From a bacterium (lineage in GTDB: Bacteria > UBA8248), in the NCBI GenBank assembly GCA_965213625.1, contig CBDBZU010000004.1, positions 3,040,001 through 3,104,000 of the forward strand: a DNA stretch of 64,000 nt, written 5' to 3'. The first letter of the stretch is position 1, and every line of letters begins with the position of its first letter. The translations under genes were made by a program, and so were the position numbers. The notes under the pieces were generated by a model. It made no database searches, was not told where the DNA came from, and saw nothing but the letters and a program-made list of their open reading frames with translations. Shown one piece after another: positions 2,785 to 63,892 of this stretch.

Positions 2785-3395
2785 TCGTTCATCTCCCCAT
2801 CCTGACGCGCCGCGAGGCTCTTTCGCTCCGGGTGCTGGCCACGCCATTGCTCGAAAAGGTTTTGTTCGAGCCCCAGGCAGGTGAGCGTCTTGCCCACCAC
2901 GTGATCGATCAAATCTTCCATCGTCTGCGGTTTGAAGTAGAACCCCGGCGACGCCGGAAGGATGAAAACCCCCATCAGCGCGAGTTTGTGCATATTTTCC
3001 AGATGAATCGCCGAGAGCGGCATCTCGCGCGGCAGGAGAACGAGTTTTTTCTGCTCCTTGAGCATCACGTCCGCCGCGCGGCAGATGAGGTTATCGCCCG
3101 TGCCTGTAGCTATCAACCCCAGCGTCTTGAGCGAGCATGGCGCTATCACCATCGCGTCGAAGCCCGCGCTGCCGCTTGCGGGCCTTGCGCCGATGTCGCT
3201 CTCGGGATGAACGACGCTCGCCCACGAAGAGAGCTTTGCGATATCCACATCCGTCTCATAGCTCAGAACGCGGATGCCCGCCTTGGAGACGACCAAGTGG
3301 GTCTCCACTTCGGGATACGCATCGTGCAAAACTTCCATCAGGCGCGCGCCGTATATCGAACCGGAAGCGCCCGTAATACCCACAACCATTTTCAT
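2781..3395 (-). CDS. ubiX: Flavin prenyltransferase UbiX
   Basis: VVGITGASGSIYG, ASGS, IAPCS, RAADVMLKE, PREMPL, PGFY motifs. Start set at MKMVVG (GGAG upstream). Confidence 0.93.
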   Translation of the reverse strand: MKMVVGITGASGSIYGARLMEVLHDAYPEVETHLVVSKAGIRVLSYETDVDIAKLSSWASVVHPESDIGARPASGSAGFDAMVIAPCSLKTLGLIATGTGDNLICRAADVMLKEQKKLVLLPREMPLSAIHLENMHKLALMGVFILPASPGFYFKPQTMEDLIDHVVGKTLTCLGLEQNLFEQWRGQHPERKSLAARQDGEMNE

Positions 3396-3420
3396 CGGAA
3401 AACTCCAGCCGCAAGCGAAG

Positions 3421-4311
3421 CTACAAGCGCGTCTTCGATACCTTCTCGTAATCACGATACAACAAGGTGAAATCTTTTTCGATCATCCCGCGTTTGACGG
3501 CTTTCTCCAAAAACTCGAGCGTGGCCTCTCCGTGCTCGGTATGCGCCCTGTGCTTCTTGCCCATCTTCACGGCCATGCCGACGTCTTTGATCATGTTGTA
3601 GACGCGCGATTTGCCGTCCCACTTTTCCGACAATATGTGGTTCGGAAAACGGAACTGGCTCGCGTAGCTCCGCGCGTTCGATACGTTGAACACGTCAATC
3701 ATGTCCTCCACCTTGAGGCCCACTTTTTCGGCGAGTTTTCCTCCCTCGCAGGTCGCCATGAAGATGGAATGGCAGACCATGTTGTGGATGAGCTTCATGG
3801 CGTGGCCCGCGCCGCTCTCGCCCAGGTAGAAAAGATCGTCTGCTATCGGCTTCAAAAATCTTTTCGTGCGGCGGTAGGCCTTCTCGTCACCGCCTATCAT
3901 GAGCGTCAGCGTGCCTGCGGCGGCGCCCGTAGCTCCGCCGCTCATGCCCGCGTCGAGATAAGCCACTCCTTTCGCCTTCGCGCGGCGGGCGATCTTCCGG
4001 CTCACCGCGGGGTCTGAACTCGTGAAGTCATAGAGCACCAGATTCTTTTTCGCGTTCGCCAGAACGCCATTCCTTCCCTTGAGGGCTTCCTCGATTTCAG
4101 GCGATCCCGGCACCACGAAGAAGATGATGCCCGCCTGCCCCACCATCTCGCCAGGCTCAAGAATCTCCACGCCCCGTTTTCTCTCCCAGGGTTCCCTCGC
4201 CTCGGGGACCACGTCCCAAACCATCAAGGGGATTTTCGCCTTGTGCAGATTGCCCGCGACGCCTCGCCCCATGTTCCCCAATCCGACCACGCCTACTTTC
4301 GCTTGCGCCAT
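3421..4311 (-). CDS. NAD(P)-dependent oxidoreductase, 3-hydroxyisobutyrate/6-PGD family
   Basis: VGVVGLGNMG Rossmann motif, LDAGMSGG, GHAMKLIHN catalytic Lys motif. Confidence 0.9.
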   Translation of the reverse strand: MAQAKVGVVGLGNMGRGVAGNLHKAKIPLMVWDVVPEAREPWERKRGVEILEPGEMVGQAGIIFFVVPGSPEIEEALKGRNGVLANAKKNLVLYDFTSSDPAVSRKIARRAKAKGVAYLDAGMSGGATGAAAGTLTLMIGGDEKAYRRTKRFLKPIADDLFYLGESGAGHAMKLIHNMVCHSIFMATCEGGKLAEKVGLKVEDMIDVFNVSNARSYASQFRFPNHILSEKWDGKSRVYNMIKDVGMAVKMGKKHRAHTEHGEATLEFLEKAVKRGMIEKDFTLLYRDYEKVSKTRL

Positions 4312-23850: not shown

Positions 23851-23951
23851 GAGCGTCGCCCCGTCGCCATCCGAGGAAGTTATGCTGGACACTTCGCGTG
23901 GCGAACACTTAGAATGATTTGCGAGGCACCGCGGCTCACGGGGAGATTGCC

Positions 23952-25601
<1,650 letters not shown>

Positions 25602-25616: not shown

Positions 25617-28358
25617 ATGCCTGACGATAAAGCGATCGCCATTACCATCGACGGCCGGGAAATCAAGGCCCGGGACGGCGCGACCATCTGGGAGGTGGCC
25701 CAGTCGATGGGCGTCGATATCCCCAGGCTATGCCATCAGCCCGGCATGGAGCCCGTGGGCGTATGCCGCGTATGCGCCATCGAGGTTAAAGGCGCGCGAA
25801 CGCTGGTTCCCTCCTGCCACCGGAAGATTGAACCCGGCATGGTGATCCGCACGGGAAGCGAGCGCGTCGTGCGCGCCCAGAAAACCCTGGTGGCCATGCT
25901 GATGGCGGACCACGGCGCGGAGTCCGAGTCCCAAAACTGCGAACTCACAGCACTCGCCGAGCAGATGAAAATCCAAAACGGCGTGAGCACCTTGCCGCCC
26001 AAGGAGACGGTGCGCGAGCGCGATCTCTCATCCGCCGTCATCGCCGTGGACCACAGCGCGTGCATCCTTTGCGACCGCTGCATCCGCGCCTGCACGGACG
26101 TTCAGGGCAACAACGTCATCGGACGCGGTGGTAAAGGCACGCATGCCGGCATCGTGTTCGACACCGATCTGCCCATGGGAGAATCCACCTGCGTCTCCTG
26201 CGGGGAGTGCATGGCCGCCTGCCCCACGGACGCGCTCACGAACAAATCCCTCACGCTGCAAATCGCCCCCGACAAGACCAAGGAGGTGGATTCCGTCTGC
26301 CCCTACTGCGGCGTGGGATGTTCCATCACCTATCAGGTGGCGGGCAACACGCTCCTGAGCGTCAGTGGGGATGAAACCAGTCCCGTGAACCAGGGAAGGC
26401 TCTGCGTGAAGGGGCGCTACGGGTTCGACTACGCGCATCACCCGGACAGGCTGACGACCCCCCTCATCCGAATAGAAGGCGCGCCCAAGACGAAGGAACT
26501 GCCCGGCAATCCGCTCTCCCTGTTCCGTGAGGCGAGTTGGGATGAAGCCATGGAACTCGCCGCAAGTTCGCTCCAGAAAATCCATGAGGACCACGGCCCC
26601 TCGAGCATGGCCGGCTTCGGTTCGGCGAAATGCTCGAACGAGGACAACTATCTTTTTCAGAAACTCATCCGCGCCGTGTTCGGCACGAACAACGTGGATC
26701 ACTGCACGAGGCTTTGCCACGCGAGCTCGGTGGCCGCTCTTTACCAGACCATCGGGTCGAGCGCGGTGAGCAACCCCTTCTCGGATGCGCTCAAGGCGGA
26801 TTTCATCCTCGTGGCGGGCGCGAACGCCACCGAAAACCACCCCGTGGCGGCCACCTTCATCAAGCAGGCCTCTACTGCGGGCGCCACGCTGGCCGTCGCG
26901 GACCCGAGGCGAATCGACCTCGTCGATCATGCGGACACCTTCGTGCAGTTCCGCCCCGGTACGGACGTGGCGCTGTTCAACGGGCTTTTGAACGTGGTGA
27001 TCGATGAAAAACTCTACGACGTCGATTTCGTCGCCGCGCGCACCGAGGGGTTCAATGAACTCGCAGAGAACGTAAAGCCCTATACGCCCCAAAACGTCGC
27101 CAAACTCACAGGCGTTGCCCCGGAAACGCTCCGGGCATTGGCCAGAGGGTATGCGACGGCTGAGCGCAGCATCATCTTCTGGGGCATGGGCCTCTCCCAG
27201 CACACCCACGGCACGGACAACTGCCGCGCGCTCATCGCGCTTTGCCTGATATGCGGGCAAATCGGGCGTGAGGGAACCGGCCTGCACCCCCTGCGCGGCC
27301 AGAACAACGTGCAGGGCGCATCGGACGTGGGCCTGATTCCCATGGTCTATTCCGCCTATCAGGACGTGGCCTCTCCCAGTATCCGCAGGAAATTCGAAAA
27401 AGCCTGGGGCCGGAAACTCGACCCAGTACCGGGCCTCACCGTGATGGAAATCGCCGACGCAGCCAACCGGGGCGAGATAAAGGGCATGTACATCATGGGC
27501 GAGAACCCGGCCATGAGCGATCCCAATCTCAATCATTCGCGGGGCGCGCTCGCCAACCTGGAATTCCTCGTCGTCCAGGACATTTTTCTCACGGAAACCG
27601 CCTATTTCGCAGACGTGGTGCTCCCTTCCACGGCGTTCCCGGAGAAAACGGGCACCTATACGAACACGGACAGGAGGGTGCAGATAGGAAGGCGGGCCAT
27701 CGACCCGCCAGGCCAAGCGCGCGAGGACTGGCGCATCGTGGCCGAACTCTCGGGTCGGCTGGGCTACCCGATGAAATATAAATCTGAAGCCGCCATTTTC
27801 GATGAAATCGCATCGCTGACACCGTTCATGGCAGGTATGTCTTATAAGCGCCTGGGGGAGCACGGACTCGTCTGGCCGTGCGCCAGACCCGATCGCCAGG
27901 GCACGGAAATCCTGTTCTCGAGATCATTCCCGTCAGGCCGAGGAAAGCTCATTCCCGTCCAGTATGCCCCCGCCAGGGAGATGCCGGACGAGGACTACCC
28001 TTTCGTGCTCAACACGGGTCGCAACATCTACCACTGGCATACGGGGGCCATCACCAGAAGGGCGCAGGCGTTAGAAGCCGCGGAGCCCGGCCCCTACGTG
28101 GAAATGTCGCCCGATGACCTGAAACGCCTGAAGATCAAAGACGGCTCGGACGTCCGCGTGGAATCGAGACGTGGTAATATCACCCTGCCCGCCCGGTCTT
28201 CATCGCGCGTGAGGCCAGGGCAGGTGTTCATCCCCTTCCACTATGTCGAGGCCGCCGCGAACCTGCTCACCGTAGACGACCTCGACCCCTACGGAAAAAT
28301 TCCCGAGTTCAAGTTCTGCGCCGTGCGGGTGAGGAAGACGAGGAGACAGCGGGGGTGA
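25617..28358 (+). CDS. fdhF: Formate dehydrogenase alpha subunit (Mo/W-bisPGD, Cys-type)
   Basis: N-terminal Fe-S clusters; CPYCGVGC, LCVKGRYG, NNVDHCTRLCH (Cys ligand), PLRGQNNVQG, KIPEFK. Confidence 0.93.
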   Translation: MPDDKAIAITIDGREIKARDGATIWEVAQSMGVDIPRLCHQPGMEPVGVCRVCAIEVKGARTLVPSCHRKIEPGMVIRTGSERVVRAQKTLVAMLMADHGAESESQNCELTALAEQMKIQNGVSTLPPKETVRERDLSSAVIAVDHSACILCDRCIRACTDVQGNNVIGRGGKGTHAGIVFDTDLPMGESTCVSCGECMAACPTDALTNKSLTLQIAPDKTKEVDSVCPYCGVGCSITYQVAGNTLLSVSGDETSPVNQGRLCVKGRYGFDYAHHPDRLTTPLIRIEGAPKTKELPGNPLSLFREASWDEAMELAASSLQKIHEDHGPSSMAGFGSAKCSNEDNYLFQKLIRAVFGTNNVDHCTRLCHASSVAALYQTIGSSAVSNPFSDALKADFILVAGANATENHPVAATFIKQASTAGATLAVADPRRIDLVDHADTFVQFRPGTDVALFNGLLNVVIDEKLYDVDFVAARTEGFNELAENVKPYTPQNVAKLTGVAPETLRALARGYATAERSIIFWGMGLSQHTHGTDNCRALIALCLICGQIGREGTGLHPLRGQNNVQGASDVGLIPMVYSAYQDVASPSIRRKFEKAWGRKLDPVPGLTVMEIADAANRGEIKGMYIMGENPAMSDPNLNHSRGALANLEFLVVQDIFLTETAYFADVVLPSTAFPEKTGTYTNTDRRVQIGRRAIDPPGQAREDWRIVAELSGRLGYPMKYKSEAAIFDEIASLTPFMAGMSYKRLGEHGLVWPCARPDRQGTEILFSRSFPSGRGKLIPVQYAPAREMPDEDYPFVLNTGRNIYHWHTGAITRRAQALEAAEPGPYVEMSPDDLKRLKIKDGSDVRVESRRGNITLPARSSSRVRPGQVFIPFHYVEAAANLLTVDDLDPYGKIPEFKFCAVRVRKTRRQRG

Positions 28359-32822: not shown

Positions 32823-33533
32823 CTACCCCGGCACCTCCATGCGCCGGTAGGATTCGGCGCACTCGAGGCCGCCCTCTTCGCCCGAGCGTTTCGCCCAGTT
32901 TCTGAGATGGGGAACCAGCTCTTCAAAATCCTTGACCTGGCTCTTGTGGCACTTGAGCGCCTTGATTTTGAGGTCGAACGTATCGGTGATGTCCACCCAG
33001 GTGTCGGCGCCGCGAATCGTCTTGAAATAGACTTCCCTGGGATTGTGCGGCTCCAGACCCTCGGCCAACAGTTCGGGAAAGAAATTCGCATTCCCCACGG
33101 CGGGATAGAGCGCGTCGAAAACCGCCTTGGCGACGGCGCGGTGATCGCGGTGGTAGCCGTAGAAGCTGTCGAAAGCGTCGTTCGCCGGATCGTCGGCGAT
33201 GACGAGGTCCGGCTTGCACTCCCTCATCACATGCACGAGGTCGCGCCTGAGTTCGGTGGTGTTGCGCACTTCCCCGTCCGTATGGCGCAGGAAATGAACA
33301 TGCTCCACGCCGACGACGGCCGCCGCCGCGCGCTGTTCGCTCTCGCGAATCGCTCGTTTCTCCTCGATGGTCATGCGGCGCGATTCGGGGCCGTTCACGC
33401 CCTTGTCCCCGCTCGTGGCGAGGCAATACTCCACGCGCCTGCCCTCGCGCACCCATTTGGCGGCCGAGCCCGCCGAGCGGAACTCGATGTCGTCGGGGTG
33501 CGCGCAGATGATGAGAATTTTCTGATGTTCCAT
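32823..33533 (-). CDS. PIG-L/LmbE family deacetylase
   Basis: AHPDD, TSGDKG, RESEQRAA, YHRDHR, KALKCHKSQ. Confidence 0.92.
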   Translation of the reverse strand: MEHQKILIICAHPDDIEFRSAGSAAKWVREGRRVEYCLATSGDKGVNGPESRRMTIEEKRAIRESEQRAAAAVVGVEHVHFLRHTDGEVRNTTELRRDLVHVMRECKPDLVIADDPANDAFDSFYGYHRDHRAVAKAVFDALYPAVGNANFFPELLAEGLEPHNPREVYFKTIRGADTWVDITDTFDLKIKALKCHKSQVKDFEELVPHLRNWAKRSGEEGGLECAESYRRMEVPG

Positions 33534-33609
33534 CGGGGTTTCCTTATGTGGGCCAAGCGGCAAGGCGACTTATAGCAGGGGGCGATGCGCATCGCAAAGG
33601 GGAAGGGGC

Positions 33610-34330
33610 ACCCCCCCCTACCCCCCTTGTGTCGGGGTTGTTGAAAAAGTCTTTGTGTGAGATTTTTCGTTTGTTGTAGCGGACAGGCCCCTGCGCCTGT
33701 CTGGGGCCTCCGTGCCTGTCCTGAATGTAACCATCCTGCAAAAGGACAACCACGGAGGGCCGGACGACTCCGATAAGGGTTGTCCGGCTACACCCCCTCG
33801 CGTCGAACCCTCTCTCCCCGGTCGGCTCCATACGCCGAATCTCGAATTTGAGGCATTTTCAACAGCCCCCTTGTCAAAAGGGTAATAGCGATGTCCCCCG
33901 ACAAGAGAGTGGAAGAAAAGCCCCCCTTGACAAGGGGGAGTACGGGGTCAAACGCGAGCGAAGAGCGAGTGTTTGCAGCCTTTCCAGTCGAGAGGGGCGT
34001 CCTCTCTACTCTCTAAAAAGGGGACTTTTTCAACAACTCCCGTAAGGACAGGTCACGACCTGTCCCTACACCTTCTGAGATAATCATTCCTCCACGAATC
34101 GAATATCCGGTGTAGGTGACAGCTCCTCCTTGGGGCTGCTCCACGCATAAATGCGACCCTTGTTTTCTATCCAACGTAGCCTCGATAGATTATGATTTGA
34201 GTCCGAACGGGCCGCATGTATGCGGCCCCTACATTAATTTTCGACAAACAACTCAGAAGACAGATAGCTACTGCCGCCCCCCACTCCTCGGTCGGCGAAT
34301 GCTCGTTCCTCACTCGCGTTCGACCCCATG
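33610..34330. repeat. Nested REP/MITE-like cluster C
   Basis: GGGGTTGTTGAAAAAG 33634...TTTTCAACAGCCCC 33856 enclosing a REP doublet; CCCCCCTTGACAAGGGGG; palindrome 34042-34069; GGGCCGCATGTATGCGGCCCCTAC; inverted pair GGGGTCAAACGCGAGCGA (33944) / TCACTCGCGTTCGACCCC (34310). Confidence 0.85.
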
Positions 34331-34413
34331 GTCGCCACCCCGAAAATCTGCTAAAAATAATGAAAAACACCTGCGCGAGATTTATTGCGAACCTGAATGA
34401 GGAGGAGACCGAG

Positions 34414-35004
34414 ATGTCGAGAATCACGCCGATGCCAGATGACGCCAAAGGCGATCACGAACCGCTCTTCGAGCAATCGAGGGAAAGATGGGGCACTGTT
34501 CCCAGTTTCTACCGCGCCCTGGCGCATTCGCCCGAAGCGCTGCGCCACATCATGAACCTGACGGTGGCCCTGAGGAGCCAGTGGCGGGCCGAGCCTTCGA
34601 GAATGCGCCTGATGCAGTTGGCGATCCTGACGCCCTCGCTCATCAACGACTGCGAGATATGAACGAACCACAACATAAAGCTTGGTCAAGCTGCCGGTCT
34701 GAATGATGAACATGTATCTTTGATAGTCGATGGATGGGAGGACAGCGACCTGTTCGATGAGCGGGAAAAGGCGGTGATCCGCTGGGCGACGGCTCTCACG
34801 CGGAACACGGCCGCCGCAGACGACGCCTGTTTCGCGCCGCTCAGGGAGTTTTTCAGCGAGAAGGACATCGTGGAACTTACCTTGTTCACCTGCCTGTTCA
34901 ACGCCTGGAACCGCCTGCAGGACGGCCTCCACAACCCCGTTGAGCCGCCCGACGACATCATCGGCTGGAAGGAATGGGAGGAAGTGGCGCAGGTGTCGGA
35001 TTAG
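34414..35004 (+). CDS. AhpD/CMD-family peroxidase-like protein with in-frame UGA (probable selenocysteine, CxxU)
   Basis: GGAGGAG RBS then ATG 34414. ...NDCEI-TGA(34660-62)-TNHN... continues in frame through the track's 34720 ORF to TAG 35004 (196 aa). Typical C-terminal LFDEREKAVIRW...FSEKDIVELT...NAWNR. Confidence 0.85.
34679..34692 (+). promoter_or_regulatory. Candidate bacterial SECIS hairpin
   Basis: AGCTT-GGTC-AAGCT; the G-initial apical loop begins 21 nt after the UGA. Confidence 0.55.
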
Positions 35005-35018
35005 GTGGGGGGTGAGGC

Positions 35019-35267
35019 CGTAGGGGCGACCTTGCGTGGTCGCCCTTTATCGGATAGGCACAGGGGCCTGTCCCTACGGGTCAACCCAACTAAAGAGGGA
35101 AGAGTTTCAATGGATTTGTAGGGGCCGCATATTTGCGGCCCGCGCTGACAAGAGAGATCTATACGAGCCGAAAATCGCCTAGTCTCCACGAATTTTTGCG
35201 AAAACGGCAAGAATCAACCCACGGGTCGCATATATGTAGCGCTCCCAAGGAGGGAGCGCTACCTACA
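35019..35267. repeat. REP doublets (cluster D)
   Basis: GTAGGGGCGACCTTGCGTGGTCGCCC...GGCCTGTCCCTAC and GTAGGGGCCGCATATTTGCGGCCC...GGGTCGCATATATG-hairpin-CCTAC. Confidence 0.85.
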
Positions 35268-36169: not shown

Positions 36170-36507
36170 GTAAGGACAGGTCGCGACCTGTGGGACAGCC
36201 CCGAGAGGGGCTATCACTACCGAAACCGCTCGGTTTCAATGCCGGGCTTTCCCCTCGGAATGCCCGACCTTCAAGGGGTTGTTGAAAAAGTCCTCTTCGG
36301 CCTGAATTGACCACAGCCGTCATTCCGGCGAAAGCCGGAATCCATTGTCGAGCAGAATGACACTACTCCGTCTTTCCATCTCCCCGTCATTGGCGGGAAC
36401 CAATCAAAAAATAATAAACAAAGGCAAAACAAATGGATTCCGGCTTTCGCCGGAATGACGAACAAAACCGTACCGCATCGTAAGGACAGGTCGCGACCTG
36501 TCCCTAC
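36170..36507. repeat. REP cluster E including a perfect CGTC-type inverted pair
   Basis: CGTCATTCCGGCGAAAGCCGGAATCCATT 36318-36346 and its exact reverse complement 36432-36460; GTAAGGACAGGTCGCGACCTGT at 36170 and 36480; GGGGTTGTTGAAAAAG 36275. Confidence 0.88.
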
Positions 36508-63496: not shown

Positions 63497-63892
63497 ATGC
63501 CAGAAAATAATTTAGCAAAAGAAATCGCAGAACGCAGAGGGCACAGATACCCGGCCCATGAATTTATCGCCGAAAAATTTCCCGACTACATGGAAGCACT
63601 TTTACATCTCGATGAGATCATTCGTGCGAAAGAGAGAAGATTCGATGAAACAATGCATGAACTCTTTCATGTTTTAGCCCTCGCCGTTGAGGGTTCTAAC
63701 CCACATAACCAGCCTCACCTCAAACAACATCTGAAAAAAGGGCTCAAGCTAGGATTGCATCCAGAAGAAATAGCAGAAGCGCTCATGGTCTGTGTAAACC
63801 CTGCAGGCTCGAAGGTGCTCACCTATGGCGTCACTTGCATGCTCGAAGCAATGGATGAACTCAAGGAAGAGGGCTGGAAATACCCCGACTAA
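63497..63892 (+). CDS. Carboxymuconolactone decarboxylase (CMD)-like protein
   Basis: RRGHR...PDY..A, HEL...ALA, HLKKGLKLGLHPEEIAEALMV...AG. Confidence 0.75.
   Translation: MPENNLAKEIAERRGHRYPAHEFIAEKFPDYMEALLHLDEIIRAKERRFDETMHELFHVLALAVEGSNPHNQPHLKQHLKKGLKLGLHPEEIAEALMVCVNPAGSKVLTYGVTCMLEAMDELKEEGWKYPD

Follow-up and report, generated by a model that had tools for sequence, protein, structure and literature searches.

Gene structure and reading frame

The stretch of DNA analysed here (64 kb, or 64,000 nt; hereafter the window) comes from a bacterium of the UBA8248 lineage (assembly GCA_965213625.1, contig CBDBZU010000004.1, positions 3,040,001 to 3,104,000), and at 34414-35004 it contains a gene for a small redox enzyme that is interrupted by an in-frame TGA. 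The open reading frames (ORFs) at 34216-34662 and 34720-35004 share one frame under the standard code, and the TGA at 34660-34662 is the sole stop between them; the coordinates and frame given in a preliminary description of this DNA were confirmed. Read from the ATG at 34414, the peptide around the TGA is S-L-I-N-D-C-E-I-U-T-N-H-N, and the TGA is codon 83 of 196, which agrees with the 196-residue read-through protein with selenocysteine (Sec, U) at position 83 that the same description had proposed. We conclude that 34414-35004 is almost certainly one gene in which the in-frame TGA encodes Sec. The features of the locus are collected in Table 1.

The true start is placed at 34414, not 34216, because an ATG lies exactly 82 codons 5' of the TGA in 27 of 27 orthologues (described below). 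On the other side of the TGA, the next start in the window is the TTG at 34720, and a restart there would lose the conserved T-N-H-N motif.

Table 1. Features of the AhpD-like gene and its immediate surroundings, in window coordinates.
Feature	Position	Strand	Basis or remark
Shine-Dalgarno-like AGGAGGAG	34400..34407	+	6 nt 5' of ATG 34414; read from the sequence, putative function
Complete coding sequence, predicted 196-residue AhpD-like selenoprotein	34414..35004	+	ATG 34414, Sec-TGA at codon 83, stop TAG 35002-35004
Redox motif C80-E-I-U83-T-N-H86-N87 (CxxUxxHN)	34651..34674	+	Motif reading; homologue counts; helix model
Frozen synonymous sites, codons 82, 84-87 and 90-92	34657..34689	+	UGA context, spacer, 5' arm, loop and start of 3' arm
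In-frame TGA, codon 83, almost certainly read as selenocysteine	34660..34662	+	TGA/Cys alignment; conservation in related loci
SECIS-type hairpin AGCUU/AAGCU, 5-bp stem, loop GGUC at 34684-34687	34679..34692	+	Covariation; RNAalifold
GC-rich palindrome GTAGGGGCGACC...GGTCGCCC	35020..35045	+	16 nt 3' of the stop codon

Redox motif, family and fold

Protein comparisons were made with Cys standing in for Sec at residue 83. An exhaustive profile-free search returned 2468 homologues at E <= 0.001, and 134 of a 154-protein set cover residues 78-88. Cys occupies position 83 in 109 of these 134 full-length homologues, followed by Glu (9), Ser (5) and Trp (1). The preliminary description had placed the TGA, within N-D-C-E-I-[TGA]-T-N-H, at the second Cys of the family's redox motif, and had expected Cys in homologues there, with Trp as the contrary outcome; the peptide context, the alignment to CxxC and the single Trp all bear this out. 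Position 80 is Cys in 104 homologues and position 86 is His in 94. Some Cys homologues keep the second Cys only, for example in N-H-S-I-N-C. The His stands at +3 from U in the window protein (CxxUxxHN), whereas it stands at +4 in the solved structure 2gmy (CxxCxxxH) and in homologue P0008.

Protein records of relatives show the same break. Residues 1-82 are matched by P0009 (82 aa, 83% identity) and residues 97-192 by P0010 (100 aa), and P0003, a 109-aa protein from a 2.9-Mb NCBI/ENA record, is a C-terminal fragment. Because these fragments stop or start at the break, gene callers do split relatives of this gene, as had been anticipated for automated pipelines. One further record, P0007 (113 aa, from a 953-nt contig), is 77% identical over residues 1-64 and then wholly divergent; it looks like the product of a frameshifted or low-quality contig, not a different form of the gene.

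The read-through product is a member of the AhpD-like/CMD superfamily, of the TIGR01926/COG2128 type. Its best NCBIfam match is TIGR01926, "peroxidase-related enzyme" (71.2 bits, E 8.7e-20), and by sequence it matches PDB entries from 2gmy (Atu0492, E 5.5e-18) down to E 8.6e-08, among them 2ijc, 2o4d, 7xw1 and 6k40. Alignments to solved AhpD-like structures cross the TGA, and U83 falls on the second Cys of CxxC (2gmy, 2ijc). An AlphaFold model computed from 62 sequences (predicted local distance difference test 93.8, predicted template modelling (TM) score 0.89) is all-alpha with 10 helices; C80 lies just before helix 81-93, and U83 is in the first turn of the same helix. Foldseek searches of the PDB returned AhpD-like/CMD proteins as all top matches, with probability 1.00 and TM scores of 0.71-0.86 normalised by target length. 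The all-alpha AhpD fold, the CxxC-type motif at a helix N-terminus and the conserved His that mark AhpD/CMD proteins are thus all present.

The solved proteins (2gmy, Atu0492; 2o4d, 2ijc and 7xw1, PA0269/AhpD of Pseudomonas aeruginosa; 6k40, alkyl hydroperoxide reductase of Deinococcus radiodurans) share this fold with the window protein at TM 0.80-0.86, normalised by target, and 24-32% identity. They differ from it in that all use Cys where the window protein has U, and those of 145-165 residues are without its first ~38 residues; most are structural-genomics entries without an assigned substrate. Two NCBIfam models are named for Sec-containing members, NF053654 (YciW-related (seleno)protein) and NF041238 (AhpD_rel_CFYUT (seleno)protein). 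Both are homologous to the window protein, over residues 2-173 and 8-177 respectively, but it belongs to neither (51.7 against a cut-off of 310, and 21.2 against 175). Representatives of the orthologues and of the paralogous and betaproteobacterial clades introduced below were tested in the same way, and none reaches the cut-off of any curated model.

The window has a second CMD-domain ORF (131 aa, 63497-63892, plus strand), which has no CxxC or Cys pair and no in-frame TGA and is unrelated to the selenoprotein gene.

The TGA in related genomes

GTDB species genomes were scanned with a four-sequence alignment, which yielded 80 loci in three groups. The first comprises 27 orthologues (59-96% identity) from metagenome-assembled genomes (MAGs) labelled Nitrospinota, Nitrospinaceae or "bacterium"; the second is a paralogous clade (~35-40% identity), often in the same genomes as the orthologues; and the third is a mostly betaproteobacterial clade (~32-36% identity). 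Opposite position 83, 78 of the 80 loci have the codon TGA and the other two (L042 and L055) have TGC; none has TAA or TAG. The persistence of the TGA in relatives, which the preliminary description had proposed as a check, is therefore nearly complete. All 27 orthologues carry a single internal TGA and no other stop, with lengths of 193-213 residues.

The motif differs among the groups. In the paralogous clade it reads L-T-E/Q-C-N-N-U-I/V-G-H-N-V (L028, L029, L043 and L046, with the match at about 3001-3549 in each). In L046 and L051 (codon at 3232) Ser replaces the first Cys and the TGA is kept (A-Q-S-D-Y-U-A-G-H-N-I); these would be single-Sec forms with no resolving Cys in the motif. The betaproteobacterial clade (L058, L059, L061-L063, L065, L067-L073, L075, L076 and L078-L080) has L-N-E-C-R/K/Q-Y-U-I-K-H-N-R, also with TGA. 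Some record titles in this clade name unlikely organisms, such as Bordetella parapertussis and Streptomyces MAGs.

Selection acts on both sides of the TGA. Where the synonymous rate could be estimated, pairwise ratios of nonsynonymous to synonymous substitution rates (dN/dS) against the window were 0.03-0.27 for codons 1-82 and 0.03-0.24 for codons 84-185. Because dN/dS is equally low after the TGA, that part is translated in frame. Together with the protein alignments, this provides the conservation on both sides that had been expected of a read-through protein. A nonsense mutation or miscalled base in a Cys-type AhpD-like gene would need one base change only (TGC or TGT to TGA), and the window comes from a single assembly. 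The same TGA is nonetheless present in 78 of 80 independently assembled loci from three clades and several phyla, downstream selection is intact, and none of the 27 orthologues has a further stop or a frameshift. To judge from these comparisons, a pseudogene or an assembly or sequencing error is effectively refuted.

The low dN/dS on both sides would also fit a split gene, in which translation stops at the TGA and an 82-aa half assembles with a restart product into one domain, and gene callers do yield such fragments (P0009, P0003 and P0010). The break, however, is TGA in 78 of 78 interrupted loci, though TAG and TAA end 20 of the 34 Pfam-supported genes in the window, and it falls exactly at the most conserved catalytic Cys. 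There is neither a conserved restart codon nor a conserved ribosome-binding site; codon 88 is variously ATA, ATT, GTA, GTC, GTG or GTT across close sequences. Residues 84-87 (T-N-H-N) are conserved, yet any restart in the window would exclude them, and the RNA hairpin described below covaries. We consider a split gene very unlikely.

The stops of the same 34 genes are TGA in 14, TAG in 13 and TAA in 7. Because TGA ends 14 of them, it is an ordinary stop in this organism, and its recoding at codon 83 is local and site-specific. A listing of TGA-interrupted candidates in the window had 29 entries; apart from this gene none has a redox motif or family support, although no searches were aimed at them.

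A hairpin 3' of the UGA

The preliminary description had noted a hairpin, AGCTT-GGTC-AAGCT, with its loop 21 nt 3' of the TGA and resembling a selenocysteine insertion sequence (SECIS). Its coordinates and 21-nt spacing were verified, and the hairpin proved to be conserved with compensatory changes. It is present in 79 of 79 TGA sequences (the window and 78 loci), with stems of 4-8 bp, and it is absent from both TGC loci. The loop follows the UGA by 21 nt in the window and 60 relatives, 61 sequences in all, and by 17 nt in 18 betaproteobacterial ones. Across the 79 sequences the loop is GGUC in 75, GGUU in three and CGUU in one, and GGUC is invariant in the 61 sequences that are in register.

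Pair statistics were computed on these 61 sequences (53 distinct rows). The 18 betaproteobacterial sequences were excluded from the count and measured separately because their 4-nt-shorter spacer put the MAFFT alignment out of register. Paired cells amounted to 88.7%, compared with 79.1% in column shuffles, and 37 cells were altered on both sides, compared with 14.1; 0 of 500 shuffles reached either observed value. Registers slid by 1-3 columns paired at just 22-50%. The loop-closing pair is intact in all 53 distinct rows, as C-G in 33 and as U-A in 20. For the outermost pair of the core, A-U occurs in 40 rows, G-C in seven and C-G in three, with U-A, G-U and unpaired in one each. The switch of the closing pair joins a synonymous Leu change (CTT/CTC) with a Gln/Arg replacement (CAA/CGA), a combination that would be hard to explain by protein selection alone. 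RNAalifold independently returned the identical 5-bp helix. An extended 7-bp helix was considered and rejected, as its two outer pairs are unpaired in 24 and 17 of the 53 distinct rows; only the 5-bp core is general.

Synonymous sites tell the same story at the level of codons. Among 20 close sequences, third positions vary in 97 of 122 degenerate codons whose amino acid is invariant and are frozen in the other 25, and all eight such codons within 82-92 are frozen.

The version of the hairpin in the window, which it shares with its closest relatives (L001-L012, L014-L016, L026 and L027), is the weakest. Stronger ones occur in L017 (-10.2 kcal/mol) and L018 (-10.7 kcal/mol), stems of 7-8 bp are seen in L017 and L029, and the paralogous clade has stems of 6-8 bp with a GGUC loop. 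The betaproteobacterial form is CGCCU-GGUC-GGGCG, 17 nt after the UGA. In the window, the 71 nt 3' of the UGA fold less stably than shuffles (z +1.48), and the minimum free energy (MFE) structure of that segment differs from the hairpin. To judge from these data, the significance of the hairpin comes solely from comparison with relatives, and we take the comparative analysis as decisive.

RNAalifold also proposed a 3-bp long-range pairing that encloses the hairpin, between 34664-34666 (the ACG after the UGA) and about 34727-34729, some 60 nt apart (alignment A5, columns 8-10 and 71-73). Two-sided changes were seen there in 4-5 of 20 sequences; the pairing is too short to judge. A permissive Rfam search of 34600-34780 gave only a chance-level match to a long noncoding RNA (E 9.5).

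Comparison with bacterial SECIS elements

The bacterial SECIS model set out in the accessible part of a 2026 review has a loop of 3-9 nt on a 4-16-bp upper stem, a G at loop position 1 or 2 (G[G|U]), a UGA-to-loop distance of 16-37 nt and an MFE <= -7.5 kcal/mol (PMC13188914). As the model is given there, the window hairpin agrees with three of its four criteria, having a 4-nt loop on a 5-bp stem, a loop G and a 21-nt spacing.

The closest point of comparison is the SECIS of Escherichia coli fdhF, which likewise lies in the coding sequence directly 3' of the UGA and has a GGUC loop closed by a Watson-Crick helix (UGCA/UGCA in fdhF). From UGA to loop, the 21 nt of the window compare with 18 nt in fdhF and 17 nt in the betaproteobacterial clade. 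The fdhF element is a long structure of ~40 nt with a lower stem (-14.9 kcal/mol) and has a bulged U that is important for SelB binding, whereas the mini-hairpin of the window has just 5 bp (about -3 to -4 kcal/mol) and lacks a conserved lower stem. An fdhF-like element had been assigned in the preliminary description to a GGTCTG that follows the hairpin. This hexamer is indeed present, at 34696-34701, but it is not conserved (GGTTTG, GGATTG and GGCCTG occur in orthologues) and has no visible role; the counterpart of the fdhF loop is instead the GGUC loop of the hairpin itself. The window hairpin appears to work like a SECIS even though it is sub-threshold for the published model.

Evidence for and against selenocysteine decoding

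Several observations weigh against Sec insertion directed by this hairpin. The hairpin is weak, at -2.7 kcal/mol alone and -3.8 kcal/mol with dangling ends (42-nt MFE -4.5), and 86 of 200 shuffles fold as well as the -3.8 kcal/mol value. It fails the published energy threshold of -7.5 kcal/mol, which 46 of the 79 sequences pass on the hairpin alone. Rfam gave no match at gathering score over the whole window. Two of the five covariation measures do not clearly exceed shuffles (two-sided-change pairs, 266/500; further pair types, 19/500). The 79 TGA sequences are related, so that cell counts overstate independent events, and the Cys-codon negative controls for the hairpin are only two loci. Part of the nucleotide conservation can be ascribed to the encoded peptide, because L-G-Q/R-A is itself conserved in Cys homologues. 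At the protein level, scores are below curated thresholds for both Pfam CMD (PF02627, 16.7 bits against 23) and TIGR01926 (cut-off 81.8), although the homology to the latter is significant nonetheless. As for the decoding machinery, ARAGORN detected no tRNA, hence no tRNA-Sec, in the window; no SelA, SelB or SelD domain was found among the 41 window ORFs scanned; and no selA, selB, selD or tRNA-Sec was found in the flanks of the 13 loci examined. Finally, no experiment on any member of the subfamily was found in the literature.

Related genomes provide indirect support for a Sec pathway. The selenoprotein database BSepDB draws on species possessing the pathway, and the accessible part of its description puts the number of selenoprotein genes at about 50 in related "Nitrospinota"/UBA8248 MAGs and at 54 in MAG FO_M_Nitrospinota_01 (PMC13326102). 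Orthologue L018 and paralogue L054 both come from the latter MAG.

The lack of visible Sec machinery in the window and the thermodynamic weakness of its hairpin would also suit a UGA read as a standard amino acid (Trp, Cys, Gly or Arg), through near-cognate or suppressor decoding or a reassigned code and with no selenium involved. Code reassignment is contradicted by the 14 of 34 window genes that TGA terminates. Among the 134 homologues, moreover, 109 have Cys and just one has Trp at position 83, the loop sequence and spacing of the hairpin are those of a SelB-type SECIS, and an orthologue-bearing MAG is among the BSepDB entries, which in the portion available come from Sec-pathway species (PMC13326102). 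We give read-through with a standard amino acid only a slight chance.

Considering all of the above, we find it highly probable that 34414-35004 encodes a 196-residue AhpD-like thiol/selenol oxidoreductase in which UGA83 is Sec, with a C80-x-x-U83-x-x-H86 centre, and that the GGUC hairpin acts as the SECIS that directs its decoding. On the model of E. coli fdhF, the in-frame hairpin, its GGUC loop 21 nt after the UGA, would bring SelB and its Sec-tRNA(Sec) to the ribosome ahead of release factor 2. The selenolate of Sec83 is the likely attacking nucleophile and may act either on a hydroperoxide or on a partner (a peroxiredoxin, for example) that has an oxidised cysteine. Formation of a Se-S bond with Cys80 would then resolve the intermediate, reduction of this bond by a cellular thiol system would recycle the enzyme, and His86 may help proton transfer. 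The data bear directly on the structure of the gene, TGA conservation, the match of Cys with Sec, the fold and selection on the hairpin RNA, whereas dependence on SelB, incorporation of selenium, substrate and chemistry are inferred.

A role of the second motif position as key nucleophile fits its higher conservation (109 compared with 104 of 134 for the first position). It also fits the homologues that keep only that Cys and the Ser-first Sec forms in L046 and L051. Mycobacterium tuberculosis AhpD reportedly conforms to the same pattern. Peroxidase or thiol-reductase activity, which the preliminary description had suggested, may be expected from family membership.

Genomic neighbourhood

A divergent gene for a PIG-L/LmbE-family deacetylase (32823-33563, minus strand) lies upstream of the selenoprotein gene. 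Such a gene is also upstream in three of five orthologous loci examined (L001, 1859-2626; L018, 2168-2932; L022, 2098-2805). Its best NCBIfam matches are the bacillithiol deacetylases BshB1/BshB2, far below cut-off (96.8 against 182.5). This neighbour may link the selenoprotein gene to low-molecular-weight thiol metabolism.

In the paralogous clade the gene directly follows a QueF-like gene (a TENA/THI-4-family ORF in L043) and a gene for an XDH-family molybdenum-cofactor subunit in four of four loci examined, and in L028 and L043 a luciferase-like monooxygenase then follows the paralogue. This conserved cluster is one of two grounds for a different functional proposal, namely that the CxxUxxHN subfamily is a specialised selenol-based reductase with a different substrate and not a general peroxide scavenger, possibly a Sec-dependent reductive dehalogenase or a dedicated redox partner. 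The other ground is the fold, which is common to the cysteine-dependent tetrabromopyrrole debrominase Bmp8 (6ohi/6ohj; TM ~0.77 normalised by target, with a weak sequence match of 1.9e-06). Bmp8 is a CMD-family enzyme with a catalytic cysteine, and a PDB entry title names its C82A mutant. Its identity to the window protein is only 17%. Comparisons have been drawn between the chemistry of Bmp8 and that of deiodinase, a selenoenzyme. We take the names of some of the closest MAGs to be codes of samples from sponges, animals rich in brominated compounds. We regard this specialised role as an unlikely but not negligible extension of the oxidoreductase assignment.

At 23919-25601 and 25617-28358 (plus strand) the window encodes a NuoF-like subunit and then a molybdopterin oxidoreductase of 913 residues whose N-terminal part has 2Fe-2S and 4Fe-4S domains. 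The latter is laid out like the alpha subunit of an NAD-linked formate dehydrogenase; as nothing interrupts its frame, it is not a Sec form here.

GC-rich palindromes headed GTAGGG or GTAAGG bracket the selenoprotein gene (34209-34228, 35122-35141, 35020-35045, 34042-34069, 36176-36191 and 36480-36507). The pattern GGGCCGCA-N4-TGCGGCCC stands on both sides of the gene in opposite orientation (34209-34228 and 35122-35141), with two occurrences compared with 0.10 expected, and copies of the GTAAGGACAGGTC/GACCTGTCCCTAC palindrome lie further out. They look like repetitive extragenic palindromic (REP)-type intergenic repeats; a GTAG head is a hallmark of REP/RAYT elements. The palindrome just 3' of the stop codon could be terminator-like or REP-like, with no demonstrated link to the gene, and it was not called in a terminator scan. 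A promoter scan gave one promoter-like site (34332-34361), no more than in shuffles.

Relation to known selenoproteins

That AhpD-like CxxU selenoproteins had already been described, as the preliminary description stated, is borne out by three publications in their accessible portions. The AhpD-like CxxU protein was reported as a new selenoprotein family in 2005 from the Sargasso Sea metagenome, with 27 sequences and an assignment to COG2128 (PMC1088965). In the Global Ocean Sampling data "AhpD-like 1" had 299 sequences, the fourth highest count in the listed part of the table (PMC2398784), and the 2026 review lists "AhpD-like protein, TIGR01926, CxxU" (PMC13188914). As characterised in those portions, this family resembles the window protein in its superfamily and in a CxxU motif with Sec for the second Cys. 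Directly 3' of the UGA the family also has, like the window gene, a SECIS-like stem-loop whose small apical loop contains a G. The two differ in that the window protein is below the cut-off of TIGR01926, the model named for the family.

As far as these sources go, the gene belongs to an already described selenoprotein family in a lineage already known as selenoprotein-rich, and it opens no new kind of system. Three aspects are mildly new: the CxxUxxHN subfamily uses Sec almost wholly in genomes (78 of 80 loci), it reaches no curated model cut-off, and its GGUC-loop SECIS is very small.

For annotation, the finding means that the locus should be recorded as one 196-residue selenoprotein and not as two fragments or a pseudogene. 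Because no curated NCBIfam or Pfam model reaches cut-off, automated pipelines are likely to keep missing this gene as well as the paralogous and betaproteobacterial clades. If functional, the GGUC mini-hairpin, with its 5 bp and an energy that misses the threshold of current search models, would rank with the smallest bacterial SECIS elements. Its relatives form a natural series of minimal GGUC-loop elements, from 5 bp at ~-3 kcal/mol to 8 bp at ~-10 kcal/mol, on which the minimum structure required by SelB could be tested. With this gene, a lineage that reportedly ranks with the most selenoprotein-rich bacteria would gain a further redox enzyme in which Sec replaces Cys.

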